From positions 1 through 47,252 of the forward strand of contig JBCCHT010000063.1 in NCBI GenBank assembly GCA_039028615.1: DNA of 47,252 bases, written 5' to 3'. The notes under the pieces are model-generated. The model ran no database searches, was not told the origin of the DNA, and worked only from the letters and a program-made list of their open reading frames with translations. Each line of letters opens with the position of its first letter. Positions within the stretch are counted from its first letter, which is position 1. The position numbers and the translations under genes are program-made. The stretch is from Myxococcota bacterium (GTDB lineage Bacteria; Myxococcota_A; Polyangia; Nannocystales; Nannocystaceae). Below are positions 2,066 through 32,978 of the stretch, piece after piece.

Positions 2066-3541
2066 ATGTCGTGGCGACCGACTCGGCCCCTCGTCCCCCT
2101 CGTCTTGTCGTGGGCGCTGGGATGTGCGAGCGCACCGACCCCACACAACCCCGCTGCCACGCGACCGGGCTCCTCGTCCGCCGCCGAGACCCCGGCATCG
2201 CAACGCATCGACGACTACGTAGGGCAATTCGGACGGCACTGGGGCGAGGCCTTCCGATTCAACGGCTACGTGATGGTCGTCCGCGATGGCGAGGTGCTCT
2301 ACAGCAACGGCTTCGGACGCGCCGATGCAGCGGGGAGCCCCTTCGAGGCGACCACGGTCTTCCCCATCGCTTCCAACACCAAGGCATTCACGGCGGCGGC
2401 CATCCTGAAGCTCCAGGAGCGGCAGAAGCTCAGCGTCGAGGATCGGGTCGTGGACCATCTCCCCGACTACGAGGGCCCTGCCGCCGAGGTCACCATCCAC
2501 CAGTTGCTGACGCACACAGCGGGCCTGCCGAGCTATACGACCTTCCCCAAGTACTTCGAAACGCAGAGTCGGGAGCGGAGCGTAGAAGAGATCCTCGACC
2601 TGTTTCGTGCCCGCCCGCTGCTGTTTTCCCCGGGCGAGAGCTACACCTACAGCAACTCGGGCTACGCACTGCTCGGCGCCATCATCGAAGCGGCCTCGGG
2701 TTCGAGCTACGGTGAGTTTCTCGCCTCCGAGATCATTGCCTCCGCCGGCCTCCAGGACACGAGCTTCGTGCCGGCCGGGTATTGCCAGGATGAGCTGCCC
2801 GGCTACGCGTTGGGGGACGACGAGCGGCTGAAGCTCGACGACCAGAACACCCACATGTCCAATGGCTTCTCCGCAGGCGGCATTCGATCGACGGCGACGG
2901 ACCTGGCCGCTTGGGGTACCGCACTCTTGGATGGCCGCGTGTTGCAGGCGTCGTCCATGGAGGCGCTGTTCACCGCGGAGCGAGAGCACTACGCGTACGG
3001 GTGGGAGATCGGTGAACTGGCGGGGCAGCCCCTGTTCTGGCACGGCGGCGTGATCTGTGGATTCCAGAACCAGGTGGTGCTGCTTCCCGAGGAGAAGCTC
3101 GTGGTCGTGGCCTGGATCAACAATCGAGATTTCGCGCTCGATCCTCTCGTCCCTGGCGTGGTGTCGCTGGCGCTCGGCGAGGAACCTCTGCCCGTGGAAG
3201 AGCCGGCACTGGTCGAGCTGTCCGAAGCGCAACGGAAGCGCATCGCCGGCCAGTACCAGATCACGGACCAGGGCCGGACGGCCGCGATCGAGGCGGGCGC
3301 CCCCGAGACGTGGATCGATACGGTCTCGGCGCTGACCCTGGTGGACCGTGGAGGTGAGCTGTACGTCGAGAATCTGGGCGGGCTGTTGTCGGCGACCGAG
3401 GATGGGCCGCTAGTGGTTCGGAGCTGGCGAGTGTTCTTCACGTTCGAGCGCGACGACACCGACCGAATCACCGGGATGTGGATGCGGCAGGGCGACACCT
3501 CGATCGAGTATGACCGCGCCCCCGCAGCCGACGAGCCCTGA
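2066..3541 (+). CDS. Serine hydrolase, beta-lactamase/PBP class C family lipoprotein
   Basis: SNTK (SxxK), LLTHTAGL, YSNSGY (YxN) and HGG motifs; signal peptide ending ALGC. Confidence 0.9.
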   Translation: MSWRPTRPLVPLVLSWALGCASAPTPHNPAATRPGSSSAAETPASQRIDDYVGQFGRHWGEAFRFNGYVMVVRDGEVLYSNGFGRADAAGSPFEATTVFPIASNTKAFTAAAILKLQERQKLSVEDRVVDHLPDYEGPAAEVTIHQLLTHTAGLPSYTTFPKYFETQSRERSVEEILDLFRARPLLFSPGESYTYSNSGYALLGAIIEAASGSSYGEFLASEIIASAGLQDTSFVPAGYCQDELPGYALGDDERLKLDDQNTHMSNGFSAGGIRSTATDLAAWGTALLDGRVLQASSMEALFTAEREHYAYGWEIGELAGQPLFWHGGVICGFQNQVVLLPEEKLVVVAWINNRDFALDPLVPGVVSLALGEEPLPVEEPALVELSEAQRKRIAGQYQITDQGRTAAIEAGAPETWIDTVSALTLVDRGGELYVENLGGLLSATEDGPLVVRSWRVFFTFERDDTDRITGMWMRQGDTSIEYDRAPAADEP

Positions 3542-3551
3542 GCACCGCCCG

Positions 3552-3890
3552 CTACTCCTCGACCACCGCCCTCAGCCGCTCGATGGCTTCATCCCACTGC
3601 GCCGACGCCCGCGCCAAGTAGTCTCGAGCCCGCCGAATGGACTCGGGCCGAATCGAGAAGTGGCTCTCGCGACCCGAACGCTTGCGCGACACGACACCCG
3701 CTCGCTCCAACGTACGCAAGTGCTTCGTGACGCCTTGACGCGTCATGTCGAGGCCCTCGGCCAGCTGTGCGATCGAATGGCGTCTCCCGTCACTCAGGCG
3801 CGACACGAGCTCCAGGCGAGTGGCATCGCCGAGCGCCGCGAACACGTTCGCCGACGCAACCACGCTACGCGCCGTACTAGCTCTCGACAT
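3552..3890 (-). CDS. ArsR/SmtB family transcriptional regulator
   Basis: VFAALGDATRLELV...MTRQGVTKHLRTLERAGVV winged HTH; C-terminal W..A+.RL typical of ArsR-SRPBCC pairs. Confidence 0.9.
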   Translation of the reverse strand: MSRASTARSVVASANVFAALGDATRLELVSRLSDGRRHSIAQLAEGLDMTRQGVTKHLRTLERAGVVSRKRSGRESHFSIRPESIRRARDYLARASAQWDEAIERLRAVVEE

Positions 3891-4338
3891 GGGCAGCGAC
3901 GTTCACGGCCTGGATGTCCCAACCCTGCTCATTCGAACGCAGCACCTCGAGCCGCTTTGTCTCCGGGAAGTGCAAAAAGCCGGTCTCGGTGATGGTGAGG
4001 CGCGTCCCCGCCGCGGTGGGCTCCAGTCGGAACTCCACCATCACCTTCGCGTCCTCGGGATAGTCGGTATCGGGATCGACGGCGCTCGGCGGCCACGAGA
4101 ACGCAAACAGGCGCTCGTGCTCCATCGTTTCGGTGATCGACACCCATTGCATGTCCTCGTAGCCGGGCGCCGTGATGTTGCCGGTCGTGGTCGCTCCCAC
4201 CTCGAAGGGGTTGTCCAGCCGAACCCGAAACCACGCTCCGAACTCCTCGTGGTCGGTGATGGCCTTCCAAACCCGAGACACCGGGGCTGCGAGCTCGACG
4301 ATCTTCTCGATTCGATCTTGGTCCGCGCGGACGGTCAT
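3877..4338 (-). CDS. SRPBCC/AHSA1-like domain protein
   Basis: IEKIVELAAPVSRVWKAITD..EFGAWF...GTRLTITETGF...NEQGW; ATG at 4338 with a GAGGAGG RBS. Confidence 0.9.
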   Translation of the reverse strand: MTVRADQDRIEKIVELAAPVSRVWKAITDHEEFGAWFRVRLDNPFEVGATTTGNITAPGYEDMQWVSITETMEHERLFAFSWPPSAVDPDTDYPEDAKVMVEFRLEPTAAGTRLTITETGFLHFPETKRLEVLRSNEQGWDIQAVNVAAHVES

Positions 4339-4380
4339 GAGTGCACCTCCTCGTGCATCTTGACGCGTTTCGCCAAAAGA

Positions 4381-4396
4381 GCAACCATTTAGTTGC
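4381..4396. promoter_or_regulatory. Putative ArsR operator GCAAC-N6-GTTGC
   Basis: GCAACCATTTAGTTGC inverted repeat in the AT-rich gap about 43 bp upstream of the SRPBCC-ArsR operon. Confidence 0.6.
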
Positions 4397-4464
4397 ATTT
4401 AGTCTTCGGCCGGACCGGGCACGAGTCCCGATGACGAACCGGCGCCTGCTACAGTCCCCACCCG

Positions 4465-5199
4465 ATGACGGATTGGTCTCGACGACGAATTCTGAGCGCA
4501 GCCGCCGGCCTCCCGTTCTTGGGCTCGGGATGCGCCCTGTTCAACAGGGCGGTCGAGCCCGTGCGTGTGATGGGCGAGGCGAACATCGACGGCGCGGCCC
4601 CACTGGCCGCGGGAAGCATCGACGCCGTCGTGGAGATGACCGCACCGTGGGTCGCCTACGATGGTCGCTATGGCGGTGCCTCCGACGAGCACGATCGGAT
4701 CATCATCAAGCGATACGACAAGGACGCGCTGCGGATCGGTCCCACCCCTGGTGGCGCATGGACCGTGCAGACCTTCAATGTCGACGCCGGCCGTGACACG
4801 GGGATGCTGGCCGCCCACCCCGAGCTCGCTACGCCCGACTTCGTGGCTGCAGGTCCGGTGATGAAGGAGCTCCCGGACTACAAGGGCAATCGCACCGTCG
4901 TGTTCGCGGGCGGCAGCAAGGTGATGCTCCTGCAGATCAGCAGCTACTACGACTCCGAAGCGGTGGTCGACAAGCAAAAGGGCCGCGTGATCTTCCAGGG
5001 CGCCGACCTGTCCGCCCTCCTGGGCCCCAACCGCGATGGCTACCGCATGTTCGCGGAAGTCATGCAGGGGCTGAAGGTCCATGCGCTGCCGTGGACCGAC
5101 GCTGGCCCCGACATGTCGAAGCCCGGCTACACGCTCGAGGTCACCGCGTCCATCGGCGTGACGGCCACACTACGGCTCACCCGCCGCACGCTCGGCTGA
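4465..5199 (+). CDS. Hypothetical Tat-exported lipoprotein
   Basis: SRRRILS twin-arginine motif followed by a hydrophobic stretch and LGSGC lipobox. Confidence 0.7.
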   Translation: MTDWSRRRILSAAAGLPFLGSGCALFNRAVEPVRVMGEANIDGAAPLAAGSIDAVVEMTAPWVAYDGRYGGASDEHDRIIIKRYDKDALRIGPTPGGAWTVQTFNVDAGRDTGMLAAHPELATPDFVAAGPVMKELPDYKGNRTVVFAGGSKVMLLQISSYYDSEAVVDKQKGRVIFQGADLSALLGPNRDGYRMFAEVMQGLKVHALPWTDAGPDMSKPGYTLEVTASIGVTATLRLTRRTLG

Positions 5200-5291: not shown

Positions 5292-5822
5292 CTAAGCCCC
5301 GCTGGAGCGCATCTCGGGCACCAGATGGAATCGTATCGGTACGGCGGCCCGAGGATCCGTGCTCGCAAAGCCGAGCCGCTCGAGCAATCGAGCACTGCGT
5401 CGGTTGTCCGGGGCGCAATCTGCCTCGATGCGGCGAAGACCGAGGTCGTCGAAGGCATAGACAATCACGGCGGAGACGATCTCGTGCATCATCCCCTGCC
5501 CTTCGCAGGCCCCCGCGATGCCGTACCCCAGGCGGCAGTGGCCTTCGGCATCCGAGTGCATCGACGTCAACGCGACCGTCCCCACCACTGACTGCCCATC
5601 GGCGCTGAAACCGTAGAGCTTGCAGCTCGAACCGGCACGGAACTCCGCCCGGGCCCGATCGGATGCCTCGGCCCAGAGTTGCTCCTCGAGCATGGGGGAG
5701 GGAAGCGGCGGATCATAACGTTGACCGTTGGCCGACCAGTACTCGAGGAGTTTGGGCGCGTCGTCGCGCGCGCTCAGGCGGACGATGCACCGCGGAGTTC
5801 GGAGGCAGGGAAGGTCTTGCAT
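5292..5822 (-). CDS. RimJ/RimL-like GNAT N-acetyltransferase (last gene of the RiPP operon)
   Basis: LRTPRCIVR, CRLGYGI....EGQGMMHE, LGLRRIEADCAPDNRRSARLLERLGF; starts 18 bp after the upstream stop. Confidence 0.85.
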   Translation of the reverse strand: MQDLPCLRTPRCIVRLSARDDAPKLLEYWSANGQRYDPPLPSPMLEEQLWAEASDRARAEFRAGSSCKLYGFSADGQSVVGTVALTSMHSDAEGHCRLGYGIAGACEGQGMMHEIVSAVIVYAFDDLGLRRIEADCAPDNRRSARLLERLGFASTDPRAAVPIRFHLVPEMRSSGA

Positions 5823-5840: not shown

Positions 5841-7910
5841 TCAACGGAAAGAGCCTAGCGCCGTCTTGTCCCGTGCGCTCCGTTCGGCGTCGGCGATGAA
5901 GCGATCGAGCACGCTGCGGTCCTCGAGGTGCGCGCGTATGCCCGAGATGACTCGCTCCAGGCGCTCTCGGTCGAGCGCCAGAGACCCGGCGCCGTCGCGA
6001 CTCGGTTGTGAGACAGAGCCGACGAACGCCTCGTCGGCGGCGAGCTGCTCGCCGAGCCAGGCCAGGAAGTCGCCTCCCGTCTGGCAGCCGGCGGCGAGGG
6101 TGAGGTGCAAGGAAGGCCCCTCGAGCGCGACGGGTCGGTGCCAGGTTTGCGCGGGTACGTACAGCGCATCGCCCTTCGACAGCCACACGTGACGGCTACT
6201 GGTGCCCGTGTTCCCGGCGTTGAGCTGGGCGAGCCGACGCTGTCGCTCGAGCGGCGAACGAATCGGCCCCGGGGCAAGCTCCCAGTACTTGCTGCCCTCG
6301 AGCTGGAGCACGAGGACATGGGTGTCGTCGAAGTGATAGTCGAGACCGGGTCCGCTCGCGCCAGGACTGTAATAGGCGTTGATATGGCAGCGGGTGCCGA
6401 ACACCTCGTGGAGCTGCCACAAAAGCGGCGCGAGGGTGGGATGACAGTGGTGGGCCGCGCTCAGGCGAAGGGTGGTCGTCCAGCCGTTGCTCGTACCATG
6501 ACGATGGGCCTGGTCCCAGCTCTCGGCCTCGTCCCAGCGTGGTGGGTACGGGCGGGTCGGCGGAGCCGGGGGCAAGTAGTTGCCTTGTTCGAACATCTCG
6601 ATGTGCGAGGTCCCGGCTTCGTGCGCGTAGGGGTGGCGCTCGTGGACCTCGCGAACGAGGCGGAGCAGCGTGTCGCCATCGAGTATCTCGGAAAACCGGC
6701 CGGAGTCGCCGCGGAGCACCAGGGCCTGGCGATCGGCGTAGTCTTCGAGGAAATCGGACAGCTCGAGCGGAGCCACGAGTTCATCCAAGCCGGTACCGGC
6801 AGGCCGAAGGGGTGCGGTCATCGTCGGCACGGAGACACTCGCTGCGATCCTCTTCGAGACTTCATCGCGGCGGTCATCGTCGATGAAGCGAGCGAGCGAC
6901 TCCGGGTCCATGTTCGGCTCGGCCCGGATCGGTTCGCCCGACAGCCGCAGGAGGCCCTCGGGGCGGTTCGCCCACGCACACAGCACAGCGGCACCCAAGG
7001 CGGCGGTCGTGTCGTCGGGTACGGTGACGGCAGCGCGCAGGTGCTGCTCCATGAACTCTCGCAGCCGGCGTGGTCGACACCCCGAGCCCACGATCAGCAG
7101 CGGAGTATCCGGTACGACCTGGCGAGCAGTTGCGGCCAACCGTTCGATGTCACGAGCCGCGACGTCGAGGGCCGCTCGCGTCAGCCCGGCTCGCTGCGCT
7201 CCGTCCGGGGACTGGCTACACAGGGCGACGCGCCAGTGGTAGTAGCCGTCGGCAAAGGACTCCTGCGAGTCATGACCCGCGAACGGCACCGCGCTCGCAG
7301 AGGCCGGGGCCTCCAGCTCCGACAAGTCAGTCTCGTACAGTTCGGCCAGCAGTTCCAGCAGCGTCGCCGGGCCGCTGTTGGGCTTTGCCGCCCCCGGGAG
7401 CGGATTGCCCCCCACGAGACTCGGTAGCCCAGCGCCGAGCCTCAACACGGCCTCGATCCGGTTGCCCGTGAAGCGATAGATCCCGATGCCGGCATCGACG
7501 ACGAGCACGCAGAGTTCAGCGTTGGGGACCCGAACCGCCGCAGCGGCTGCCATCGCGGCGAGCGGATCGGAGCTCGTCGACGTCTCCGCGGTCTCGACGA
7601 AGGCCTGGGCCTCGACGAAGCTGGACAACCCGCACCGCCGAGCATGGCTGATGCGTTGGGCCTCCGTCCATGTGCCTCGAGCCCGGACGACTCGACCAAC
7701 ACCAGCCCACGACTGAGCCGCCGGGTTCAGGGCGAGTCCGCTGGCCACCGCGCTGTACAGGCACAGGCCCTCGCGCTCGGGGCCCCGCGCAACGCCGGAT
7801 CGGCCGATCGCGAAGGCACCATCCCGGGGTCGGATCGCGATGCAGGTGCCGGGGAAACGCTCGGGGTCCACCCCCAAGAACACGGTGTCGGTGGGCTCGC
7901 TGGGGCTCAT
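5841..7910 (-). CDS. Fusion of a degenerate carbamoyltransferase-N (Kae1/ASKHA)-like domain and a JmjC/cupin_4 (ROXA/YcfD-like) 2OG-Fe(II) oxygenase
   Basis: C-terminal INAYYSP..GLDYHFDDTHVLVLQLEGSKYW...LSKGDALYVPAQTWH gives the HxD..H triad. N-terminal VFLGVD, VLVVDAG and VPDDTTAALGAAVL resemble the NodU/CmcH N-domain. ATGA overlap with the upstream gene at 7907-7910. Confidence 0.75.
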   Translation of the reverse strand: MSPSEPTDTVFLGVDPERFPGTCIAIRPRDGAFAIGRSGVARGPEREGLCLYSAVASGLALNPAAQSWAGVGRVVRARGTWTEAQRISHARRCGLSSFVEAQAFVETAETSTSSDPLAAMAAAAAVRVPNAELCVLVVDAGIGIYRFTGNRIEAVLRLGAGLPSLVGGNPLPGAAKPNSGPATLLELLAELYETDLSELEAPASASAVPFAGHDSQESFADGYYHWRVALCSQSPDGAQRAGLTRAALDVAARDIERLAATARQVVPDTPLLIVGSGCRPRRLREFMEQHLRAAVTVPDDTTAALGAAVLCAWANRPEGLLRLSGEPIRAEPNMDPESLARFIDDDRRDEVSKRIAASVSVPTMTAPLRPAGTGLDELVAPLELSDFLEDYADRQALVLRGDSGRFSEILDGDTLLRLVREVHERHPYAHEAGTSHIEMFEQGNYLPPAPPTRPYPPRWDEAESWDQAHRHGTSNGWTTTLRLSAAHHCHPTLAPLLWQLHEVFGTRCHINAYYSPGASGPGLDYHFDDTHVLVLQLEGSKYWELAPGPIRSPLERQRRLAQLNAGNTGTSSRHVWLSKGDALYVPAQTWHRPVALEGPSLHLTLAAGCQTGGDFLAWLGEQLAADEAFVGSVSQPSRDGAGSLALDRERLERVISGIRAHLEDRSVLDRFIADAERSARDKTALGSFR

Positions 7911-9151
7911 GCGTTCCTCCAATCGGCGGCGTACCAACCGAAGAAGTCGTAGGCGCGGTGACTACGGTCGAGGGTGAGGCGGACCGGCTGCATCTCGTTC
8001 TGAACCTCTCCCGCCGCCTCGACCAGGCCGCTGCACCACACCTCGGCGGGGCGATCGATGACGAACTCACCGCGGTAGCCGATTGCGATCCTGGCCTCCA
8101 CCGGACCTCGGGGCACGGCCGTTCCCTCGCCGACGAAGCCCTGGATGACCCCCTCGCTCGAGTCGATGTCGAACACGACCATCGGCCTGCGCTGTCCCTG
8201 CTCGTCTCGGATCTCCGAGCGATGCGGCAGGACGGGGGCACCCGATGACGCGGGTCGGGGTTCACCGCGGAGGCGATGGTCCAGGGCCAGCCGTTGCGAC
8301 GAGCGCATGGGGTAGTCGCAGCCCTTGCACGACGCGCGCTCCCGCAGCTTGCCGCCCAGGGCATCGCGGCGCAGCGACTTCATCGCAGGCCCGTTCCACA
8401 GCTCGGCGATCGATTGGTTCGCAAGCGAGCCAAAGGTCTCGTCGTGGGACCAATCTTGGCAGCACAGCAGGGCCTCCCCGTCCCAGCGCAGGGTCAGGGT
8501 CTCGACGGGGTAGCTGCAATAGCCGTAGTCCTCCTCGACCTGCTGCATCACTCGGTCATCGCCCTTCGTCCCCGCGCGAGTCGAGTAGGGCAGCAGCCGC
8601 ACCGAGTACCCTCGCTCGGACCAGTAGTGGCGAAAACGGTTGCCCGCTTCGACGTCGTCGGAGCCGACGACGGAAGACACGACGACCTGGCTGCGATCGC
8701 CCTCCCACGTCGTGAGAACCTCGTGGACCCGATCCCAGCGATCGCGGCCGTGGACCTGCAGGTAGCGTCGCTGGTCGGTGGCGTTGATCGACACCGTCAG
8801 CTGAAAGCGGGGGAAGGTCGCGAGTTCATCGAGGACCTCGTGACCGAGCCGGCTCCCGTTGGTGACCGTGGCGATGGCCTTGATGTTGTCGATGGCATGG
8901 GCCTGCCGCACGAAGTCGACGAAGCGCTTGTCGACCATCGGCTCGTTCTGGAGCATCAGGCACAGCGTCACCGTCTGCCCCGATTGCTCGATCTGCTCGA
9001 GGATGCCGCGATACAGCTCGTCGTCCATCCACGCGGCCTTGGTGTCGAGCGCGGTCGCGGGATACGGGCACATGCTGCACGCGTAGTTGCAGCGATTGTG
9101 CGTCTGAATCTGGATCCTCCGGGGGAAGGCCGAGCCGATTTCTTCGTGCAT
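7907..9151 (-). CDS. Radical SAM enzyme with SPASM/Twitch auxiliary cluster domain and about 130-aa C-terminal extension
   Basis: CNYACSMC (CxxxCxxC), NEP, TNGS; CSYP...DGEALLCCQDW...FGSL..QSIAELWNG...CKGC; ATG 9151 with a GAAGGA RBS. Confidence 0.9.
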   Translation of the reverse strand: MHEEIGSAFPRRIQIQTHNRCNYACSMCPYPATALDTKAAWMDDELYRGILEQIEQSGQTVTLCLMLQNEPMVDKRFVDFVRQAHAIDNIKAIATVTNGSRLGHEVLDELATFPRFQLTVSINATDQRRYLQVHGRDRWDRVHEVLTTWEGDRSQVVVSSVVGSDDVEAGNRFRHYWSERGYSVRLLPYSTRAGTKGDDRVMQQVEEDYGYCSYPVETLTLRWDGEALLCCQDWSHDETFGSLANQSIAELWNGPAMKSLRRDALGGKLRERASCKGCDYPMRSSQRLALDHRLRGEPRPASSGAPVLPHRSEIRDEQGQRRPMVVFDIDSSEGVIQGFVGEGTAVPRGPVEARIAIGYRGEFVIDRPAEVWCSGLVEAAGEVQNEMQPVRLTLDRSHRAYDFFGWYAADWRNA

Positions 9152-9168: not shown

Positions 9169-10032
9169 CTACGTCGTGGCGCCGTGGCGTTGCTGCTCGG
9201 CGATCTGGCAACCGGCTCGATACGCATCCGCGTTGGCGACCAGTTGCTCGATGTGGCAGTGCTCGCCGACGGTGGCGGCATCCTGCAGGGTCTTGGTGAC
9301 GGGCTCGTGTGCCCCCTGCCCGTACAGGGTGTTGCGATGCGCAACGAAGGCGAGCAGCTGTCGGAAGCGGAGGCTGTCGGCGTCGCTGACCCGCGGCACG
9401 TGGTTCATCGTGATCAGCCGTCGCGGGCCGCGGGCGTGGAAAGCGGCATGCTTGATGTTCGCGTCGAAGATCAAGACATCGCCGGGCGCCGACTCGAGCG
9501 CGACGCTGGGGATCTGATGTCCGCGGCGGCCCCAGTAGCTCAGCTCGTGGGCGACACGGTTGGTCGAGACTCCCGTGGCCAGCTCGGAGCTGAGAGCGGC
9601 GGAGAACTGATCGTTGGCGTGGTGTGAGCCGGGGATGACCCGCAGACAGCCGCTATCGGCGTGCAGGTCTTCGAGGTAGATCGAGATTCGCAGCGAACGA
9701 AAGGGCAGCACCAGTCGGCCCGCGCCATCGTCCGAGTGCCAGGGGGTGCACTCGCCGGAGAACACCTGGCCCGTGGAGCCGACGTACGAGAAATCGTCTC
9801 CGAGCAGGTCTCGGATCACGGAGACGAGCGGGTCGCCGAAGCCGATGCTGGCCAGTCGCGGGTCCTCGCCCAGGATGTTCGCAATGGACACTCGCTGACC
9901 GGGATGAGCCTCGCGCCATCGGGCCGCGCAGGCATCGAACGCGTGCTCGATCTCGGCGATCCGTGTCGAGAGCAGCCCCGGCAGGTGGAGGAACCCAAAG
10001 GTCTCGAAGAACGAGCGGTCTTGCGAAGGCAT
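9169..10032 (-). CDS. PhyH (phytanoyl-CoA dioxygenase) family 2OG-Fe(II) dioxygenase
   Basis: FFETFGFLHLPGLL, WHSD, SGCLRVIPGSH, PGDVLIFD..IKHAA...R motifs. Confidence 0.9.
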   Translation of the reverse strand: MPSQDRSFFETFGFLHLPGLLSTRIAEIEHAFDACAARWREAHPGQRVSIANILGEDPRLASIGFGDPLVSVIRDLLGDDFSYVGSTGQVFSGECTPWHSDDGAGRLVLPFRSLRISIYLEDLHADSGCLRVIPGSHHANDQFSAALSSELATGVSTNRVAHELSYWGRRGHQIPSVALESAPGDVLIFDANIKHAAFHARGPRRLITMNHVPRVSDADSLRFRQLLAFVAHRNTLYGQGAHEPVTKTLQDAATVGEHCHIEQLVANADAYRAGCQIAEQQRHGATT

Positions 10033-10064: not shown

Positions 10065-10097
10065 GGCTGCGCCGCCCCGAGTCGGAGCGACGCAGCC
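10065..10097 (-). promoter_or_regulatory. GC-rich mRNA stem-loop directly downstream of the precursor gene
   Basis: Minus-strand RNA GGCUGCGUCGCUCCGA-C-UCGGGGCGGCGCAGCC; the arms pair fully only with two G.U wobbles, which works on the coding (minus) strand. A pyrimidine tract follows. Confidence 0.7.
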
Positions 10098-10107: not shown

Positions 10108-10299
10108 CTACTGCCAGGTGTCGTTGGCGTTGATCGTGTGCAGCCGGATCGGGCCCAGCGGGTTGGTGGGAAGGGGGCCACCCGCGCCGGGAACCGCCGC
10201 ACCACCGAGGACCTCCTTGAGCTGCTCGAGGTCGAGCACCTTGGTGTCGGCGCCCACGATGTTGTCGTCAGATTTGGTGTTCTTCTCGTTCTTGTTCAT
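10108..10299 (-). CDS. RiPP precursor peptide with double-glycine leader
   Basis: MNKNEKNTKSDDNIVGADTKVLDLEQLKEVLGG|AAVPGAGGPLPTNPLGPIRLHTINANDTWQ; LDLEQLKEVLGG fits the L(S/D)xxELxxIxGG leader consensus. It lies between tfuA-ycaO and the tailoring genes. Confidence 0.85.
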   Translation of the reverse strand: MNKNEKNTKSDDNIVGADTKVLDLEQLKEVLGGAAVPGAGGPLPTNPLGPIRLHTINANDTWQ

Positions 10300-10401: not shown

Positions 10402-12378
10402 CTACGCGTGGTCTTGCACAGGAACGGGAACGCGGCGATCGGCTTTGTCGCGGAGCCAGCCCAGCAATCGTGGTCCCACGTGCGTGGCACAGAGTCCTGC
10501 CTCGTAACCGGGGACGATGCAGCGCACGACGTGGAAGCGCCCGTCGTCCAGCGACAGATCGACCGCGAGGACCCGCTCGAGTCCACCCCCCTTGCAGACC
10601 TCGAGCGCACGCTGGAGGTCGCCAGTGATGGTGCGAGTGCTGAGATCGGGCAGCTGTCGGAAGTCGACCGGCTCGGTGCTGCTCCACTGCAGCGCATGCT
10701 GTCGCACGGTCTGGATGTCCATCCCGGCCCGGGCAGCCTTGTCACGCTCGAGGTCCTCGCGCGAGCCCGACACCACCGTGAGCCGGGTGTAGACCGCCTC
10801 GCTCAGCGCGGACGCGAACGCAACGCGGGGGTCGAGGTGACACGCCTGGCCGGCGTTGACGTACAGCGTGTTGTCTTCGTTGCGATCGTCGAGCGCGACA
10901 GAGAACAGCGGCAGCGAGAACTCGTTGTAGACGACCCAGCAGTGCACATCGATGCCGGCCGATTGCAGCGTCTCGATGACGTGCCGGCTGTGCTCGTCGG
11001 TGATGGTCGACAGATCGAGCGGCCGTCCATCGCGAAACCACCAGGCGTAGGTCGCGATGTCTCGCTCGATCACCTCGATCAGCCCGTAGAGCAGCGCCTC
11101 GGTGAGGGTCGCTCCCGTGGCCGCCCCGGCGGAGCTCGACGGGAACAAGCGTGGGCCCTCGGGGACGGGAAAGAACACGGAGGCCGCGGGAACCATCATG
11201 GCCTCGCCCGTCAGCAGGTCACGGGCGGGCCACCACGGGAGGGGCTCCGACTCCGACCAGGTACAGTCGAGCTCCCGAACCAGTGCATTGGGGTGCAGGA
11301 CGCGGTGCTCCCGAGCGACCTCGGCGAGCGTGCCGTACACCACGGGGCGATTGCGGCAGGACAGACACGCCCGCTCCACGGCTTCCAACAAGGCGCCGAC
11401 TCGTGCTCCGTCGGCACTGAGCCCCTTGCCGCCGGTCACCGTGATGTCGCCGACGTCGGCATAGGGGCGAAGCGAGCTGTAGCTCGATAGCCCCAGGCGT
11501 TCGAGGTCGGAAAGATCGGCCAGCCTCGTCACGCCGACCCTTCGGGCGTCGATCCATGCCCGCTCCAGCGCGGCCTCGGGGGACGAGATTCGATGAGAAC
11601 CGGGCGTCTTGGGCTGCTCGCCGGGCCGCCCGAGGAACTGCTCGACCGAGGGGGGCTCGGCCGGGACGTACTGCATCGTCGGCGGCCCTGCGGGGGCGCG
11701 GCGAACAATTCGGCGTTCCGCGATCCGGGTGAGCAACTCCACCGCATCGAGAGCCTTGCGATCGTGGGCGCGCGGATCTTGCTCCATGGCGGAGACGAGA
11801 GTCGACAACGCCGCATTGCTCGAGGTCGCGGGCGCCTGGCGCAGAAAGTCGAAGGTCCGCTCCCAGTACGGCACATCCGCCGCGCAACGCAGCGCAGCAT
11901 CGACCTGCGCCGCGCCGAGGACCCCGCTCGCCACCGCGCGCTCACCGGCCCATCGTAGGTTGACCATGGGCACGGACATTGCTCGATGCCGCTCGGTGTC
12001 GAACACGAGCGCGACCTCTTCGTCGGACTCGATGCGGCCGGAGACATAGGCCTCGTAGATCCAGCCGACCCCGTTCATCCCCAAGGGCTGACTCTCGGAG
12101 GCCCGCAGCGCGCCCATCGAGGACGAGCCGCAGATCCATGCTCCCGCGTGAACGGCCTCGCGAATCTCGACCAACGAGACGGACAGGCTCTGGGAAAACT
12201 CGCCGTCGATGATCGCGAAGCGTGACCACCCTTCGGCGAGCAAGCGCGGCAGGTCCCCGCGTCGAATCGGAGGCTGGAAGTGGGCATCCGGGAGGATTGC
12301 CTCGGCGTCTTCGCGGGGCAGGCACGGACCCTGGAACACGACCCAGCGCTCGTCTCGATGTTCGTCGTTCGTGTTCAT
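10402..12378 (-). CDS. tfuA-ycaO: TfuA-YcaO fusion (putative backbone thioamide synthetase)
   Basis: TfuA: VFQGPCL, PPIRRGDL, IIDGEF, GSSSMGALRASE, GVGWIYE, DEEVA, PMVNLR, RKALDA. YcaO: GVTRLADL...GKG...EAVER, SAGAATG...GLIEVIERD, EAVYTRL..SGSRED. ATG 12378 with a GGAGG RBS, 2 bp after the upstream TAG. Confidence 0.92.
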   Translation of the reverse strand: MNTNDEHRDERWVVFQGPCLPREDAEAILPDAHFQPPIRRGDLPRLLAEGWSRFAIIDGEFSQSLSVSLVEIREAVHAGAWICGSSSMGALRASESQPLGMNGVGWIYEAYVSGRIESDEEVALVFDTERHRAMSVPMVNLRWAGERAVASGVLGAAQVDAALRCAADVPYWERTFDFLRQAPATSSNAALSTLVSAMEQDPRAHDRKALDAVELLTRIAERRIVRRAPAGPPTMQYVPAEPPSVEQFLGRPGEQPKTPGSHRISSPEAALERAWIDARRVGVTRLADLSDLERLGLSSYSSLRPYADVGDITVTGGKGLSADGARVGALLEAVERACLSCRNRPVVYGTLAEVAREHRVLHPNALVRELDCTWSESEPLPWWPARDLLTGEAMMVPAASVFFPVPEGPRLFPSSSAGAATGATLTEALLYGLIEVIERDIATYAWWFRDGRPLDLSTITDEHSRHVIETLQSAGIDVHCWVVYNEFSLPLFSVALDDRNEDNTLYVNAGQACHLDPRVAFASALSEAVYTRLTVVSGSREDLERDKAARAGMDIQTVRQHALQWSSTEPVDFRQLPDLSTRTITGDLQRALEVCKGGGLERVLAVDLSLDDGRFHVVRCIVPGYEAGLCATHVGPRLLGWLRDKADRRVPVPVQDHA

Positions 12379-12380: not shown

Positions 12381-14309
12381 CTATGCGGCCTCCACCAGGA
12401 AGGGTCGGAACCGGGCGTCGATGCGGATGTCGTGCTCGTGGAACAGACGTTGGACTCGCCACTGCGCCAGCCCGTCGTCGTCGTCATCGGGGCCGATGTC
12501 GTGCAGCGCTCGAAGCACGCTCGCCTCGCTGTCGTGGCTCGCCAGCAACGCCTCCAGCAAGCGGTACGGGGTCGTCTGGGTACGCCCACTCGGATCGACA
12601 TCGACTCCGAGCCCAGCCATGAGCTGCTCGAACGCGGGGCTGCGATGGCCTCGGAGCAGCTCGCACAGGATGAACGCCAGCGCGTTGTCGAGTGCATGCC
12701 CGGCCTCGTCCGGGTCGAGTCGCTCGGCGAGCAGGCGCGGCGATGGACCAGTGCCGTCGGGCCACAGTCCGCTCAAGCGGTTGGCGAGGGCGTCCGGCAC
12801 CCCCGGCAGCGCGGGAGGCTCGGGGCCGAGCCGGGCGGCGATCCACTCGGGGGTCGCGCTTCGACGCAAGAAGCGGCACCAGTCGCGCCCCTTGCGGTGC
12901 TCACCGGCCAGCAGCGTCTTCTCCACGTAGTCGAAGAACGACAGAGCCTCGGTCACGCCACCCAGGGCTCCGACGATCGCCTTGGGGATGTGGAAGGTCG
13001 GGTGCAACAGGCGCGTGTCGTCGCTCGACGTCGTGCCGGTATGGGTCTGCGAGTGCGCGACCGACTGCTCTCCGACCACGTCCACCACGCTGTCGAAGAG
13101 GCGGGTGCCCACCCCGACCTCGGCGCGGGCGAAGCGACCGGCGAGGTCTCGATCGTAGCGCTTCAGCGTCTGGGCGATCGTGTTCGGGGTGCTGAACGCA
13201 TTGCCCAGAAACAGCCCGATCTTGGCCCCTCGGCCATCGGGTCCGCCGGGCAACAGCTCGGCCGTGATCTGGGCGTGCTCCACCAGGTCGGACGCTCGGT
13301 AGGGCACCCGGCAGGATCGCAGGACCGAGTCCTCGAGCGCAGGGAAGTCGTTCCAGCCTCCCATGAAACCGGAGCGGTACATCAGCTCGAGATCGTCGCG
13401 ACCGAGCCACCGCGGCAGCATGTACGCGCGCCACGACACCGGAGTCGTTCGCCCCTCGTTGAAGCGAAGGAACCGCTCGGAGACCGTGCGCGCCAGATCG
13501 GCCGAGCCCATGTTGAGCTCCGAGCAGACCAGCCACACGCTGCGGACCCCCTGGCGAGCCAGGAACTCCACGTCGGCCATGACCGCATCGAGGTCTCGGA
13601 CGCGGGTCTTTCGGCCTTTGACGGTGGGCTCGGTGCAAAAGTAGCAGCGATAGGGGCAACCGCGAGCCAGCTCGACGGCGACCGTGGGCGGGTCTTGCCC
13701 GTGGAGCTGGCCTTGGCCGTAGAAGCTCTCGAGCGCCGCGAAGACCTCTTCGTCGTACTCGCGCTCGTTCAGCGGCGCGTGGAAGACCCTGGCGTTGGAG
13801 GCCACCTGTCCCCCGTCGTCGAAGAGCAGGTTGTCGACGCGATCGAGGTCTCGGCCCGCGAGGACCGAATCGAACGCGGCCAGCATGCCATCGGGCTCGC
13901 CTTGAACCCCGAAGTCCACGCCGAGGTGCCGATAGAGGCGATGAGCGTGCGTCGTGAATCCGAAGCCGCCCGCGAAGATCTTGGCGTCAGTACGCCGACG
14001 AACCTGCTCGACCAGCCACCGGGTGTCACGCAGCGGAAAGTAGGCGAACTCGGAGGTCGACGGGTGGTAGTCGCGGAGCAGGAGCGAATCGGCCTGGCGC
14101 AGGTGGACTCCCACCGCGCGAGGACGGTGCGTCTCTAGCAGCCGATCGAGGTGCGGTCCGATCTGCTCGGGCGCGACTCCGAACAGATCGTGCCCGACCA
14201 CCCGCAGACCATGCTGCTTGGCGATCGCCCTCACTTGCACGAATGCATAGGGATAGACCGGGCGCCGCGGATAGTTCGTCGCGTTGAGCAGCAGGAGATC
14301 GGTAGACAT
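12381..14309 (-). CDS. Cobalamin (B12)-binding radical SAM enzyme (class B methyltransferase-like)
   Basis: N-terminal B12-binding Rossmann pattern (VYPYAF...VGHDL...PRAVGVHLR...IFAGGFGFT...GVQGEPD), then ELARGCPYRCYFCTE. Confidence 0.88.
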   Translation of the reverse strand: MSTDLLLLNATNYPRRPVYPYAFVQVRAIAKQHGLRVVGHDLFGVAPEQIGPHLDRLLETHRPRAVGVHLRQADSLLLRDYHPSTSEFAYFPLRDTRWLVEQVRRRTDAKIFAGGFGFTTHAHRLYRHLGVDFGVQGEPDGMLAAFDSVLAGRDLDRVDNLLFDDGGQVASNARVFHAPLNEREYDEEVFAALESFYGQGQLHGQDPPTVAVELARGCPYRCYFCTEPTVKGRKTRVRDLDAVMADVEFLARQGVRSVWLVCSELNMGSADLARTVSERFLRFNEGRTTPVSWRAYMLPRWLGRDDLELMYRSGFMGGWNDFPALEDSVLRSCRVPYRASDLVEHAQITAELLPGGPDGRGAKIGLFLGNAFSTPNTIAQTLKRYDRDLAGRFARAEVGVGTRLFDSVVDVVGEQSVAHSQTHTGTTSSDDTRLLHPTFHIPKAIVGALGGVTEALSFFDYVEKTLLAGEHRKGRDWCRFLRRSATPEWIAARLGPEPPALPGVPDALANRLSGLWPDGTGPSPRLLAERLDPDEAGHALDNALAFILCELLRGHRSPAFEQLMAGLGVDVDPSGRTQTTPYRLLEALLASHDSEASVLRALHDIGPDDDDDGLAQWRVQRLFHEHDIRIDARFRPFLVEAA

Positions 14310-14650: not shown

Positions 14651-16591
14651 CTACTCCTCGACCTGGCTGACCACCATGTTGACGAAGGTCGAGTCGCACC
14701 AGTTGGCGCCGAGCCCTTGATGAACGCGAAGGTAGACCCGCTCACCCGTGGCCATCGACAGCGCCACGTCGTGCTCGTAGGTGATGCCGAAGTCCCCGTA
14801 CTGCGTCCACAGCAGGTTGCCCTGGTCGTCGCGAAGCTCGATGTCTACCCCTTGGCCGACACAGCCGGGGTCCCCCGTGCCGATCTCCACCGCCACGTCG
14901 GCCTCGCCATCCGCGGGCGCCTCCCAGGCCAGCGTCGTCCAGCCGGCACAACCCTTGACCGAAGGCGGAACCATGACGAGCTGGTCCGGATCGGTGATCC
15001 AGGGGAAGAACGATGCGTCGGTGCAGGTCGGATCGCGCCACGAGTCGTTCCCCCAGTAGGCCGGGCCGGGCTCCAGCTCGGTGTAGTTGCCGTTGCCGTC
15101 CGCGTCGTACAGGTAGCGCCACGTGTCGTCCTCTTGGTCGCTGCCCGCGGTGCACAGCGACTGACCCAAGACGCGGGGATCGTCGTCGATCACCACGCAG
15201 CCATAGCCCGGGCCCCCCATCGAGCCACCGTCGGCGAGCCGCACGATGTACCAAGTCCCCAGCAACGAACACAGCTCGCCGTTGCGCGCTCGCGCCTCGT
15301 CGGGGGTCACGAGCGAGAAGTCCCCCGAGCACGTGCCGTCGCCCGGGAACAGCTGGTCCTGGTGCGGCACTCCGAGCTCGAAGTCGGCCGCGGCATCGTA
15401 GATGGTCGGCTCGACGCACGACCCATCCGCCGCCACCGAGGCACCGGCCAGCTCCGCCTCGCACGCGCTGCCGTAGGTCACCCCATCACAACCGCAGACC
15501 TCACCCGCCGGGGCGAACTCGCAGCCGATGGGTTGGGCTTTGCACATCCCCGCGGCCACCGTGCCGCACGCCGCCGCCTCGTCGAAGCTGCAGAACGAGT
15601 CCGCGCTGCAGTCGTCGTTGCTCGTACACGCCCCGGCGCCCTGGTAGGCGTACAGCGGCTGGCACGGCTCGACGTCGAAGTCGGTGTGCTGCGGGCCCCA
15701 GTACCAGGACTGACTCTGCGTGAGGTTGTTCCACACGCCCATGCCCATGTAGCCCACGACGTCCACCCAGTACGAGACGCTGGTTGGTCCATCGTAGAGG
15801 ATGGGGAACACCTGCCAGTTGTTGCCGGACTCCGCCGTGACGGCGAACGCCTCGGTGGTGGGCACCGTCCCCACGAGCGACTGGTACGCGGGCGTGCTGC
15901 CGTTGACCTGCGCTGCGACGACGCTACCGAAGGGCAGGTCGTAGTCGGCGGCCGTGCCTGCTCCTTGGTTGGGGAACCATGCCTGGTACGCCTGATTGGC
16001 GGCGTTCCAGGTGAACACGCCGGTCACCGAGCTGCCCAGCTGCGCCGCGACATCCGAGGCACGCGAGGGTCCGCCCAGCATGCACAGGCCCAGCTTGTTG
16101 TAGCCTGGCGCCATCTCGGTGGTCTTCTTCATCAGCATCGTCGACGGCTGGCCATCGATGCTGAGGCGATAGAAGGTGTCCGACGTGGGCTGATCGTGAT
16201 GCGCCGCGTCAGCATCGATGTAGCTGGTGGTCCCCGCGGGAAGCACGATGACCTCCGCGCCCGAGCTGGGCAGGGCAGCAGCGTCGCTCAAGTCGGTGGG
16301 CTCCGTCGTTCGGTACAGGCGAACATCGGCGCCGGAGGGCCCGGCCACCGACCAGTCGAGCACAACGTCGTTCCCGACGACCGAGACATCCACACCGAAG
16401 CCCGGGAAGGCCGGCGTCCCACGACCATCCTCGAGCGCATCCGCAGCGGAGTTCGGCACGCCCTCCCCTTCTTCCTCATCGGCGAGTTCGGCCTCGAGCT
16501 CCAGGTCGTTGGTGGGGCCCTCGGCCTGGCAGGCCGGCAGCGCGAGCAGGGCGAGGGTCGTAAGGGCAGCGTGGGTGGTCTTGATGGTCAT
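14651..16591 (-). CDS. Multidomain secreted lipoprotein with Kazal-like and aerolysin/pertussis-toxin (APT)-like domains
   Basis: Lipobox LALPAC; VCGCDGVTYGSAC (Kazal-like); DQLFPGDGTC...VTPDEA...LGTWYIVRLADGGSMGGPGY...SLC (APT-like); ATG 16591 with a GAAGGA RBS. Confidence 0.75.
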   Translation of the reverse strand: MTIKTTHAALTTLALLALPACQAEGPTNDLELEAELADEEEGEGVPNSAADALEDGRGTPAFPGFGVDVSVVGNDVVLDWSVAGPSGADVRLYRTTEPTDLSDAAALPSSGAEVIVLPAGTTSYIDADAAHHDQPTSDTFYRLSIDGQPSTMLMKKTTEMAPGYNKLGLCMLGGPSRASDVAAQLGSSVTGVFTWNAANQAYQAWFPNQGAGTAADYDLPFGSVVAAQVNGSTPAYQSLVGTVPTTEAFAVTAESGNNWQVFPILYDGPTSVSYWVDVVGYMGMGVWNNLTQSQSWYWGPQHTDFDVEPCQPLYAYQGAGACTSNDDCSADSFCSFDEAAACGTVAAGMCKAQPIGCEFAPAGEVCGCDGVTYGSACEAELAGASVAADGSCVEPTIYDAAADFELGVPHQDQLFPGDGTCSGDFSLVTPDEARARNGELCSLLGTWYIVRLADGGSMGGPGYGCVVIDDDPRVLGQSLCTAGSDQEDDTWRYLYDADGNGNYTELEPGPAYWGNDSWRDPTCTDASFFPWITDPDQLVMVPPSVKGCAGWTTLAWEAPADGEADVAVEIGTGDPGCVGQGVDIELRDDQGNLLWTQYGDFGITYEHDVALSMATGERVYLRVHQGLGANWCDSTFVNMVVSQVEE

Positions 16592-16870
16592 GGCGTGTAC
16601 GTCCTTCGGGGGCCAGGCGCCTCGTCGGTGACCGCACGGTTTTTCATCGTGCCGGTCGCCGAACGGGGCGGCGTTTCGACTTCGAGGGCGGCGACGAGGC
16701 CCGCTCGCCCGGTTCGCCCTAGCTGTCCGACCACACCCGGTTTCGTTCCCGCCTTTTTGCTGGCTACTTCGAATGGCCGTACGAGGCCCCCGAACGCCGC
16801 TACGGAGCCCTTCGCCCGGGACGAGGGCCGACGACCGAGGCCGCCGGCCCAGCTGCGATAGCCTGACCAG

Positions 16871-17158
16871 GTGCCGGTCTCCGCTCGAATCGAAGCGATC
16901 TTGGCGAAGCAACGCAGCGATGCCGAGCAGCGCGATTGGAGCACGGCCAAGGGCATCGTCGCTGCGGTCGGAGCCGCACGCGATGCGCTGGAGCGAAGGC
17001 TCGCCCAGCCGGGCGCCCCACCATCGGCAGAGCAGCTCGCGGACGCAGTCGAGGCCGCCAAGGCCGAGTTTCGTGAATTGTGGGAGGACGAAGCGGGCTA
17101 CGGACTCGCGACGCTCGGCGAGATTGCGGCCGCCCTCCGATCGGGGCCTGAGGACTGA
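16871..17158 (+). CDS. Small helical hypothetical protein
   Basis: GC3-biased codons; fills the gap between flanking genes; no recognisable motif. Confidence 0.5.
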   Translation: MPVSARIEAILAKQRSDAEQRDWSTAKGIVAAVGAARDALERRLAQPGAPPSAEQLADAVEAAKAEFRELWEDEAGYGLATLGEIAAALRSGPED

Positions 17159-32115: not shown

Positions 32116-32763
32116 TCAGCATGCCGCCAAGAACGCGGCTTCTTCGGCCATACACACGGGCATGCCCCCGCCAAACTCAGCGCACGTCAGGGCACTCAAG
32201 CACACGACGAAATCCTCGAATGCCATCACGCACGCTGGGCCGTAGTTCATCGCCAGGGTCATCTGGTAGTTGTCGCAGTACGCTTCTGCATAGGCCCCAT
32301 ACATCGGGTCGTAGCAGTAGGCCACGGTCGCGCCGTAGGCTTCACAGGGCGTCGTAGCTGGACCGGTGGAGCCGCTGCTGCTCTCGGAGTCACCGCTGCT
32401 CTCGGAGTCACCGCTGCTCTCGGAGTCACCGCTGCTCCCGGAGTCACTGCTGCTCTCGGAGTCACCGCTGCCCGTGGAGGACGTCCCCTCCGAGGTGCCG
32501 CTCGATTCCCCCGCGATGCCCGAGGAACTCGACCCACTCGTGCTCGAGTTTGCCGTGCCCGTCGAACCTCCGGTCCCATCGGCACCGGAGGTCGTCGATG
32601 CGGGCCCCGGCCCGGGGGAAGTCATGGTGGTCGCCGTTCCAGAGCTCGATGCTCCCGAAGACCCATCGCCCCCCACCCCGTCGTCAACGGGGCAGCCGAG
32701 GGTCAGGGGCGCGATGGAAAATAGAAACCAGAGGTTCGTCCGATCTTCGTCGAAGGTACGCAT
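32116..32763 (-). CDS. Ser/Thr/Gly-rich, Cys-rich lipoprotein
   Basis: LTLGC lipobox, low-complexity linker, C-terminal helical Cys-rich domain. Confidence 0.8.
   Translation of the reverse strand: MRTFDEDRTNLWFLFSIAPLTLGCPVDDGVGGDGSSGASSSGTATTMTSPGPGPASTTSGADGTGGSTGTANSSTSGSSSSGIAGESSGTSEGTSSTGSGDSESSSDSGSSGDSESSGDSESSGDSESSSGSTGPATTPCEAYGATVAYCYDPMYGAYAEAYCDNYQMTLAMNYGPACVMAFEDFVVCLSALTCAEFGGGMPVCMAEEAAFLAAC
32377..32466 (-). repeat. Five 18-bp tandem repeats encoding SGDSES
   Basis: GCTGCTCTCGGAGTCACC x5 on the + strand, one copy with 2 substitutions. Confidence 0.9.
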
Positions 32764-32978
32764 GGGGGTCACAGAAGATACCCGGGATAAAGCGATGGAC
32801 ACCACTTGCAGGGATGCATCGGCGGTCGCTCATCCCTGGCCCGAGTCGTGCAGGTGCCTTCGCTCGACGCACGCCGTTGCGAATCCTGATTGGCCTTTGT
32901 CCAAAAAGTGCACCGCTGCCGGGACAAGGTCCGGGGTCGGGGCACTTGTCGTTCGAGGAAAGGGGAAACACCGAGCCC

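Follow-up and report, generated by a model that had tools for sequence, protein, structure and literature searches.

A predicted thioamidated peptide with a conserved C-terminal tryptophan in a Myxococcota bacterium

We studied a 63-codon open reading frame (ORF) on the minus strand of a Myxococcota contig (positions 10108-10299), which very probably encodes a genuine precursor of a ribosomally made peptide that is modified after translation (RiPP). The window, i.e., the whole stretch of DNA analyzed, is the entire contig of 47,252 nt (47 kb), from a genome of 12.3 Mb with 68% GC. We favor, with modest confidence, the reading that this peptide with a double-Gly leader is the substrate of the six flanking enzymes, that its C-terminal NDTWQ tail is thioamidated and the ring of the tail Trp likely methylated, and that the Pro/Gly-rich stretch in between is a spacer.

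The precursor ORF and the flanking enzymes

The ORF runs from ATG to TAG and comprises a 33-aa leader ending VLDLEQLKEVLGG, with VLGG as its last residues, and a 30-aa core. An initial annotation, made by a model from the letters of the sequence, had described this ORF, its leader and the composition of the core, and we confirmed all of these: the core has five Pro, four Gly, three Asn and three Thr, single His, Arg, Asp, Trp and Gln, neither Cys nor Ser, and an inner Gly-Gly. The leader carries Leu-12, Leu-7 and Val-4, i.e., the hydrophobic residues of double-Gly leaders of the C39/PCAT type; these positions dock into the C39 protease LahT (PMC6363468). The GC content by codon position is 0.63/0.40/0.89, and the coding score, calculated using a codon model trained on other contigs of the same genome, is 19.6, a value that a single one of 1127 shadow ORFs (55-70 codons) reaches. 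The three ORFs overlapping the precursor in other frames score -39.8, 4.8 and -52.6. A sigma-70 scan found no promoter, and terminators were detected at chance level only. A look-up of sequencing data sets containing this DNA listed none of RNA and one of DNA, a marine metagenome that may have been the source of the window. The features of the precursor region are the following.

10108-10299, minus strand: 63-aa RiPP precursor gene, very probable (third-position GC 0.89, coding score 19.6, six homologs)
10201-10299, minus strand: double-Gly leader, 33 aa, Leu-12/Leu-7/Val-4 (register in 8/8 aligned rows)
10150-10200, minus strand: Pro/Gly-rich middle, core residues 1-17, variable in sequence, putative spacer (Pro+Gly 25-50% in 8/8 cores)
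10177-10182, minus strand: inner Gly-Gly, unlikely C39 site (wrong register, Pro at +1; in 4/8 cores)
10111-10125, minus strand: C-terminal NDTWQ (family N-x-x-W-Q), putative modification site (same pentapeptide in P0177; NGAWQ in P0178/P0181)
10114-10116, minus strand: codon of the invariant Trp, within NDTWQ
10065-10097, minus strand: stem-loop just 3' of the precursor stop, possible mRNA-stabilizing hairpin, weak (z -1.97; 10 of 200 shuffles equally stable)

The minus-strand gene order is B12-dependent radical S-adenosylmethionine (SAM) enzyme, TfuA-YcaO fusion, precursor, PhyH, twitch radical SAM enzyme, JmjC fusion and GNAT. The intergenic gaps along the cluster are 2, 102, 75, 17, -4 and 18 nt, values that rest on inferred gene starts; the small gaps and the shared orientation of the six enzyme genes suggest a single operon. 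The enzyme genes are the following.

12381-14309, minus strand: TsrM-like cobalamin (B12)-dependent methyltransferase of the radical SAM family, 642 aa, start inferred (TsrM the closest solved protein)
10402-12378, minus strand: TfuA-YcaO fusion, 658 aa, thioamide-forming type by profile scores (PF07812 and PF02624)
9169-10032, minus strand: PhyH-family Fe(II)/2-oxoglutarate (2OG) dioxygenase, 287 aa, start inferred (PF05721; HxD and distal His)
7907-9151, minus strand: radical SAM enzyme with twitch/SPASM domain and C-terminal PilZ-like barrel, 414 aa (PF04055, PF13186; CxxxCxxC)
5841-7910, minus strand: fusion of a carbamoyltransferase-N/ASKHA-fold part and a JmjC dioxygenase, 689 aa (JmjC_2, weak FGGY_C; structural match)
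5292-5822, minus strand: RimJ-like GNAT acetyltransferase, 176 aa (PF13302; best NCBIfam model RimJ, under its cut-off)

The position of the precursor beside a TfuA-YcaO fusion, also proposed in the initial annotation, was borne out by Pfam, NCBIfam and profile matches, and the profiles place the fusion in the thioamide type. Its YcaO half scores 200.8 bits on the model of YcaO enzymes that thioamidate methyl-coenzyme M reductase (MCR), versus 138.3 on SagD, and matches 6PE3 with E 9e-47, versus approximately 1e-21 for TruD/LynD/MusD. For both halves the best models are MCR-modifying ones, with NCBIfam scores under the MCR-specific cut-offs. The fusion carries ExxER motifs and the TfuA motif GSSSMGALRA, and the terminal PxP is absent. 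Thus, the arrangement that defines TfuA-YcaO thioamidated RiPPs, TfuA and a thioamide-type YcaO beside a precursor, is present.

The metal-binding residues are present in the PhyH (HxD, distal His) and JmjC enzymes. The JmjC fusion overlaps its upstream gene by 4 nt. Its N-terminal part is a structural match to Carbam_trans_N (TM-score 0.64-0.70); no match to the second carbamoyltransferase domain (Carbam_trans_C, Pfam) was found, and BLASTP against a full carbamoyltransferase was not significant, so that the carbamoyltransferase likeness rests on predicted structure. The model of the twitch enzyme (mean pLDDT, a per-residue model confidence, 69) matches BtrN, SkfB and other SPASM/twitch enzymes and indicates no one reaction. 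Its predicted C-terminal PilZ-like beta-barrel (7907-8270; TM-score 0.55-0.66, mostly to PilZ-type models) is common with the enzyme of the related locus L098 and might be a peptide- or ligand-binding module.

That the ORF is not the substrate of these enzymes (being untranslated, regulatory or a relic) and that they modify a protein or a metabolite, like the YcaOs acting on MCR and uL16, is highly improbable. YcaOs that thioamidate folded proteins exist (PMC13063428), and both halves of the fusion match MCR-modifying models best; however, the coding signal of the ORF is strong, six homologs with the same enzymes alongside (placements are given below) retain both leader and tail, and tail changes follow enzyme swaps.

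Relatives of the precursor

The peptide matched none of the Pfam and NCBIfam models, tblastn against its own genome found no second copy, and a word-index search returned the precursor itself as the sole candidate. Because the search with the peptide alone failed, the enzymes were used as queries. Six homologous precursors were obtained, two of them read beside homologous enzymes (loci L098 and L141) and four from a profile search.

An alignment search with the B12 enzyme returned 28 loci, L098 among them. L098 (739-11761), labeled Myxococcota in the tree output and also returned from a same-genus genome, contains a precursor with the tail PVAWQ and, after it, a twitch radical SAM enzyme (38% identity to that of the window), an MNIO (multinuclear non-heme iron oxidase), a cupin, the B12 enzyme (42%), a 2OG oxygenase, an AsnB-type amidotransferase and a second cupin. 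No TfuA-YcaO was found at this locus, and its 88%-complete genome holds only an unrelated split pair. A hairpin region (z -3.57) also lies 3' of the L098 precursor. This Cys-free precursor beside an MNIO is a candidate case of an MNIO acting on a non-Cys residue; the locus also holds a 392-aa protein that reads as sulfotransferase-like and has no Pfam match. L141 (8367-19976; a same-family genome) contains a precursor ending GDCDW, two radical SAM enzymes, two JmjC proteins, an aminotransferase and an O-methyltransferase; its B12 and twitch enzymes are 37% and 29% identical to their window counterparts. The YcaO of L141 is SagD-type (137.6 bits on SagD versus 33.1 on the thioamide model); it is encoded within the operon on the other strand, and the precursor ends Asp-Cys-Asp-Trp.

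A profile of three precursors, searched against 1.84 billion proteins, gave seven matches: two query members, four new precursors and one unrelated shark repeat protein. The new tails are PVAWQ (P0175), GDCDW (P0176), NDTWQ (P0177) and NGAWQ (P0178, cluster members P0181 and P0182). The longest-contig size of P0177 (17086) is identical for a fusion (P0123, 59% identity) and a B12 enzyme (P0003, 61%), and that of P0181 (7725) for fusion P0167 and B12 enzyme P0169. The fusion search itself gave nine full-length relatives (42-59%) among 44 matches. No full-length orthologue of the fusion was found in 60 relatives or in two further genomes, and an eight-row precursor profile run against 400 class-level genomes revealed no further member with window-type enzymes. 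The metagenome scan with the fusion alignment relied on generic TfuA patterns (80 loci, 28-48% matches); TfuA and YcaO are split in locus L018, and the other 79 loci were screened with the precursor profile only. Matches of the precursor profile to a housekeeping gene (L149/L154) and P0179 were rejected as false, and L153 and L155-L158 were rejected as family members, having the leader in common and not the enzymes.

The alignment comprises eight rows, representing seven distinct precursors. The leader register (Leu/Val-12, Leu-7, Val/Ile-4, Gly-Gly) is kept in 8/8 rows, and Trp is invariant at -1 or -2, being the only aromatic residue common to all eight cores. The middle segment has 25-50% Pro+Gly in 8/8 cores with little positional identity. 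The refutation named in the initial annotation, i.e., no conservation of leader or core beside homologous enzymes, is not what was observed, because leader and tail are both kept (L098, L141 and the profile matches). Its division of the core into a Pro/Gly half and a tail stands in outline; however, Pro/Gly richness extends to core residue 17, and conservation is limited to the last five residues. The His and Arg of the tail are not conserved (His in 1/8 cores) and were discarded as targets across the family; the conserved residue is Trp, which the initial annotation had not highlighted, nor had it highlighted the TsrM-like enzyme. Absence of Cys and Ser, which it used to exclude chemistries, was likewise discarded as a family signal, since Ser occurs in 5/8 cores and Cys in 2/8. 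The window core has three Thr, and Thr can in principle give methyl-oxazoline or dehydrobutyrine. What argues against azole- and lanthionine-type chemistries is that no cyclodehydratase partner, flavin dehydrogenase or dehydratase is found among the annotated genes. The inner Gly-Gly, suggested as an alternative cleavage site and present in 4/8 cores, is an unlikely C39 site because its register is wrong (Val-12/Ala-7/Gly-4, versus Leu-12/Leu-7/Val-4 at the first Gly-Gly) and Pro is at +1.

Tail types are associated with enzyme sets: N-x-x-W-Q with TfuA-YcaO fusions (3/3, two of these placed by matching contig size only), PVAWQ with the MNIO (L098) and GDCDW with the azoline-type YcaO (L141). 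The three TfuA-type precursors have Asn at -5, as against 0/4 of the other precursors; the search could not select for it, because only the window filled that column in the query alignment. In the background of the same genome, 0 of 1785 proteins end WQ, Trp is found within the last two residues in 2.5%, and Asn at -5 in 1.1%. Relatives keep only the leader, the Pro/Gly middle and the tail Trp, and therefore the tail is likely the part that is rebuilt. Similar leader and Pro/Gly segments are also found with other kinds of tail, a Cys/Ser-rich one next to LanC genes (L143) and further ones next to unrelated TfuA/YcaO genes (L155-L158); their occurrence ahead of unrelated tails supports a reusable spacer, and we consider the Pro/Gly stretch a likely spacer.

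The B12 enzyme and the proposed modifications

In a profile search of solved proteins, the best match of the window B12 enzyme is TsrM (E 1e-32); the second, an MCR Gln C-methyltransferase, is far weaker (9e-9). A fold search with its model (pLDDT 92) places TsrM at ranks 1-4. Arg69, Glu236 and Glu273 of TsrM align to Arg71, Glu227 and Glu264 of the window enzyme (HMMER alignment to 6WTE, numbering counted along the printed alignment), and these three residues are kept in 54/54 aligned rows of the B12 family, some of which are near-duplicates. Roles of Arg69 and Glu273 are explained in PMC8992657; radical methylases have hydrophobic residues at the Arg69/Glu236 positions, non-radical enzymes have polar ones, and a polar lower-axial residue is tied to non-radical chemistry (PMC12931638). 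Since the TsrM-type Arg/Glu residues are kept, polar methylation of an aromatic carbon is predicted, and since Trp is the only shared aromatic residue, the simplest choice of target is indole C2 of the peptide Trp. Our lead hypothesis is that the indole of peptide-bound Trp is methylated: we give about even chances to the B12 enzyme acting on the peptide Trp, and somewhat less than even to methylation at C2. The B12 enzyme is found in all three clusters read (window, L098, L141) while other enzymes are swapped; the twitch enzyme is the other one kept. Among precursors beside the B12 family (window included), 4/5 have Trp in the last two residues, compared to 3/18 other peptides with a Gly-Gly leader (Fisher p 0.017; 0.046 without the window; the sets were assembled by hand, and kin are not independent).

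Another proposal is that the enzyme is ApyD-like, i.e., radical C-beta methylation produces beta-methyl-Trp, or the methyl group goes to an sp3 carbon in Gln, Asn or Thr. We consider this unlikely. It is consistent with the coupling of the B12 enzyme to an MNIO in L098 and with the Gln C-methyltransferase being the second solved match; however, that match is much weaker than TsrM, the ApyD model gives 16.7 bits versus 77.6 for the TsrM model, and Arg and Glu occupy positions where radical methylases carry hydrophobic residues.

The proposed sequence of events is as follows. The TfuA-YcaO fusion would consume ATP and take sulfide from a ThiS carrier whose gene lies elsewhere (ThiS-derived sulfide is described for TfuA-YcaO thioamidation in PMC13063428 and PMC8153245) to form at least one thioamide, most likely in or next to N-x-x-W-Q. 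Installation of a backbone thioamide is probable, and its placement within the last six residues is slightly favored. The TsrM-like enzyme would pass a methyl group from methylcobalamin, by polar chemistry, to C2 of the indole in the penultimate Trp while that residue is peptide-bound; the PhyH and JmjC enzymes could add hydroxyl groups to Pro or to the beta-carbons of Asn, Asp, Trp or His (by analogy to TsaJ, PhyH may act on His21; PMC8153245); and the twitch enzyme might catalyze another redox step close to Trp. Cleavage at the first Gly-Gly and export would fall to a C39 transporter with its gene elsewhere (the genome has three C39 (PF03412) and three ThiS matches, all off this contig), the GNAT could acetylate the new N-terminal Ala, and the final product would be either the 30-mer or a short excised tail. 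The thioamide, methyl and hydroxyl chemistry anticipated in the initial annotation fits the predicted functions of these enzymes.

Decoration of the whole 30-mer in the style of thioamitides, implied by the initial annotation, has a low probability in our estimate. In that case, several thioamides would lie in the Ala/Gly-rich N-terminal half, PhyH would hydroxylate His21, the B12 enzyme would methylate it, and Trp would be incidental. TsaJ, the His beta-hydroxylase of thioamitides, belongs to PF05721, as does the window PhyH (PMC8153245), the core has a single His and begins Ala-Ala-Val, and locus L112 couples the B12 family with a His/Tyr/Phe core that has no Trp. Conversely, His is found in 1/8 cores, the sequence of the N-terminal half is not conserved, and no TsaG-type class I methyltransferase is annotated in the cluster.

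Several observations weigh against our preferred reading, in which the tail is thioamidated and its Trp methylated. Neither a C39 peptidase nor a transporter was found on the window contig. The placement of P0177 and P0181 beside fusions was inferred from matching contig sizes, their neighbors not being read directly, and P0175 and P0176 are unplaced. The profile by which these four precursors were selected already contained Trp. Five full-length fusions share a contig size with a B12 relative, and three of these (11760, 34832 and 9213) gave no precursor match. The N-x-x-W-Q precursors form a close clade, and the shared Asn may reflect descent. The B12 enzyme is only approximately 18% identical to TsrM, its score on TIGR04428 (TsrM) is 77.6, versus a cut-off of 500, and Glu at the position of 273 is common in radical SAM enzymes (PMC8992657). 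Trp-ending Gly-Gly peptides also exist without this B12 enzyme (the 3/18 above).

The remaining points concern the B12 family as a whole, of which we collected 36 distinct loci besides the window (28 from the B12 alignment, L141, and seven of ten from another search, the other three being repeats), using crude gene calls of our own; some loci are short or low-GC, and L121 and L124 were scanned for short ORFs only. A clear precursor is present in 4/36 (L098, L141, L106 and L112), and that of L112 is without Trp. The remaining loci are small-molecule clusters, loci with nonribosomal peptide synthetase (NRPS) or ketoacyl synthase III (KAS-III) neighbors, or orphans; L103 holds a His-rich ORF of doubtful status, and in three Streptomyces loci a short ORF without Trp is a possible precursor. 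The known substrate of TsrM is free Trp (PMC8992657, PMC11285071). These data, with approximately 32 of the 36 loci lacking a clear precursor, favor methylation of a small molecule in free form (Trp or another arene) that serves elsewhere or is ligated afterwards, with the peptide receiving only the thioamide and oxidative changes. We regard this, too, as rather improbable, because the B12 gene is 2 nt from TfuA-YcaO and is retained in the three clusters read while other enzymes swap, and because no quinaldate-pathway, adenylation or ligase genes are annotated in the window cluster.

A bolder extension, to which we attach little confidence, is a modular myxobacterial RiPP platform. Leader and Pro/Gly spacer would be disposable, Trp-Gln would be converted by the non-radical TsrM-type methylase and the twitch enzyme jointly into a 2-methylindole-derived alkaloid core (for instance, a pyrroloindoline or a ring-rearranged unit), excised as 2-5 residues, and swappable cassettes (TfuA-YcaO, MNIO with amidotransferase, azoline YcaO) would diversify the neighboring residues.

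Known systems, other loci and implications

The window system is not a thioviridamide-type thioamitide. It resembles thiostreptamide S4 and thioholgamide in the TfuA and YcaO pair and the PF05721 dioxygenase (PMC8153245); unlike in these, there is no core Cys, C-terminal or other, no AviMeCys (aminovinyl-methylcysteine) decarboxylase or kinase gene and no HopA1/phosphotransferase pair is annotated, and the cluster has no class I methyltransferase such as the His N-methyltransferase, whereas TfuA and YcaO are fused, the leader is double-Gly and two enzymes of the radical SAM family are present. The Burkholderia thailandensis cluster with fused tfuA-ycaO, an uncharacterized prediction, likewise has two radical SAM genes, and the Figure 5 legend lists phytanoyl-CoA dioxygenase among the gene labels (PMC8120280); we compared this cluster by description only. 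Burkholderia is absent among the few named of the nine full-length close relatives of the fusion.

TsrM, the Trp 2-C-methyltransferase of thiostrepton, shares with the window B12 enzyme Arg69, Glu236, Glu273 and CxxxCxxC and is its best match in sequence and fold; unlike TsrM, the window enzyme is approximately 70 residues longer, has no quinaldate pathway beside it, and its candidate substrate is peptide-bound Trp. Aminopyruvatides (apy, PMC11117315) also have a long precursor altered only at the C-terminal pentapeptide, a B12 radical SAM enzyme acting on the penultimate aromatic residue and no protease in the cluster, with an MNIO partner as in L098; the window differs in having no P450, MNIO or aromatic residue at -4 and in ending with Gln rather than Asp, so that only the aromatic residue at -2 and the B12 enzyme are shared. 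Crocagins (PMC10070186) are also myxobacterial, with a short C-terminal Trp core, a 2OG dioxygenase and a carbamoyltransferase gene; in contrast to their 21-aa precursor, Ile-Tyr-Trp core and CgnB/CgnE helpers, the window has a 63-aa double-Gly precursor, a different core and a partial carbamoyltransferase-like domain, and no aminopeptidase-like gene is annotated in the cluster (CgnB was not used as a query). Linear azole-containing peptides (LAP/TOMM) differ as well: YcaO scores favor the thioamide type, no E1/ThiF partner or flavin dehydrogenase is annotated, and there is no terminal PxP; the SagD-type YcaO is found in the L141 relative, unlike in the window.

Several loci around the B12 family were recorded as separate observations. 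L106 (4962-11740) is actinobacterial and combines the same TsrM-like B12 family with two YydG-like radical SAM enzymes and an aroma-sacti-domain peptide ending in Trp. L112 (5675-17741) has a long-leader precursor beside the B12 family, a carbamoyltransferase, a GNAT and a C39 transporter set. L101, L109, L110, L113-L117, L120, L122 and L123 represent a conserved uncharacterized actinobacterial cluster around a TsrM-like B12 enzyme, with several dioxygenase-like and hydrolase-like neighbors; L117, L121 and L122 have an acidic ORF of 20-28 aa ending Tyr-Glu-x-Pro-Lys/Arg. In myxobacterial L102, L104, L105, L107 and L108, the B12 family lies beside a KAS-III-like gene (Pfam-checked in L102) and two-component genes.

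The same genome holds a second TfuA/YcaO RiPP cluster (contig C17, 14905-22755; L016), with a 54-aa double-Gly precursor that has a two-Cys core, a radical SAM enzyme, an MNIO (PF05114), two YcaOs, TfuA, a GNAT and a TylF-like methyltransferase; of these YcaOs, the first is the nearest relative that the window YcaO has in this genome. Further double-Gly peptides of this genome are found at C8:199287-199457 (beside a different B12 radical SAM-like gene and cupin-like genes), C16:137269-137448 and C16:200199-200375 (C16, beside a JmjC gene), C1:732441-732623 (near a C39 transporter), C21:42950-43126 (Glu-Pro/Lys-Pro repeat core) and C30:86148-86387. In relatives, double-Gly precursors lie beside TfuA/YcaO at L155:10778-11074, L156:9779-9949, L157:9580-10308, L158:2482-2628, L161:7728-8027 and L162:11047-11376; this L155-L162 set includes TfuA-YcaO fusions of approximately 920 aa and two near-identical cores ending MNTGKPLPIMS.

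Elsewhere in the window, a 753-aa ORF upstream of the cluster (14651-16912, minus strand) encodes a large secreted-looking protein; it was rejected as a pathway gene, having no Pfam/NCBIfam match, three partial paralogs in the genome and no counterpart in related clusters. Downstream are a beta-lactamase-family serine hydrolase (2066-3541, plus strand), a small regulator-like ORF (3552-3890, minus), an SRPBCC/AHSA1 gene (3877-4398, minus) and an unannotated 244-aa ORF (4465-5199, plus), none of the four being tied to the cluster. The region 19660-46496 contains tetratricopeptide repeat (TPR) and Ser/Thr kinase genes, an M23 peptidase, an extracytoplasmic function (ECF) sigma factor, a beta-helix protein and an Mrr-like endonuclease, with an alginate lyase with F5/8 domain at 32550-34397.

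In a literature search that left subscription journals mostly uncovered, we found neither an account of this precursor family nor one of peptide-bound Trp being methylated by TsrM-type chemistry. The system may be a new variant among thioamidated RiPPs; further details of the B. thailandensis cluster may bear on its novelty. As of 2021, all characterized TfuA-YcaO RiPPs were from Actinobacteria (PMC8120280), and in 2022 only speculation was considered possible on other cobalamin enzymes that share the non-radical mechanism of TsrM, determination of substrates being a major hurdle (PMC8992657). The precursor family offers TsrM-like enzymes with a gene-encoded candidate substrate alongside, and its three tail/enzyme combinations constitute a natural experiment for assigning enzyme targets. 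If the modular platform were real, this would be the first found case of TsrM-type chemistry on peptide-bound tryptophan. If the preferred reading holds, the family would provide a tool for post-translational formation of 2-methyl-tryptophan and would represent a group of thioamidated RiPPs outside Actinobacteria.

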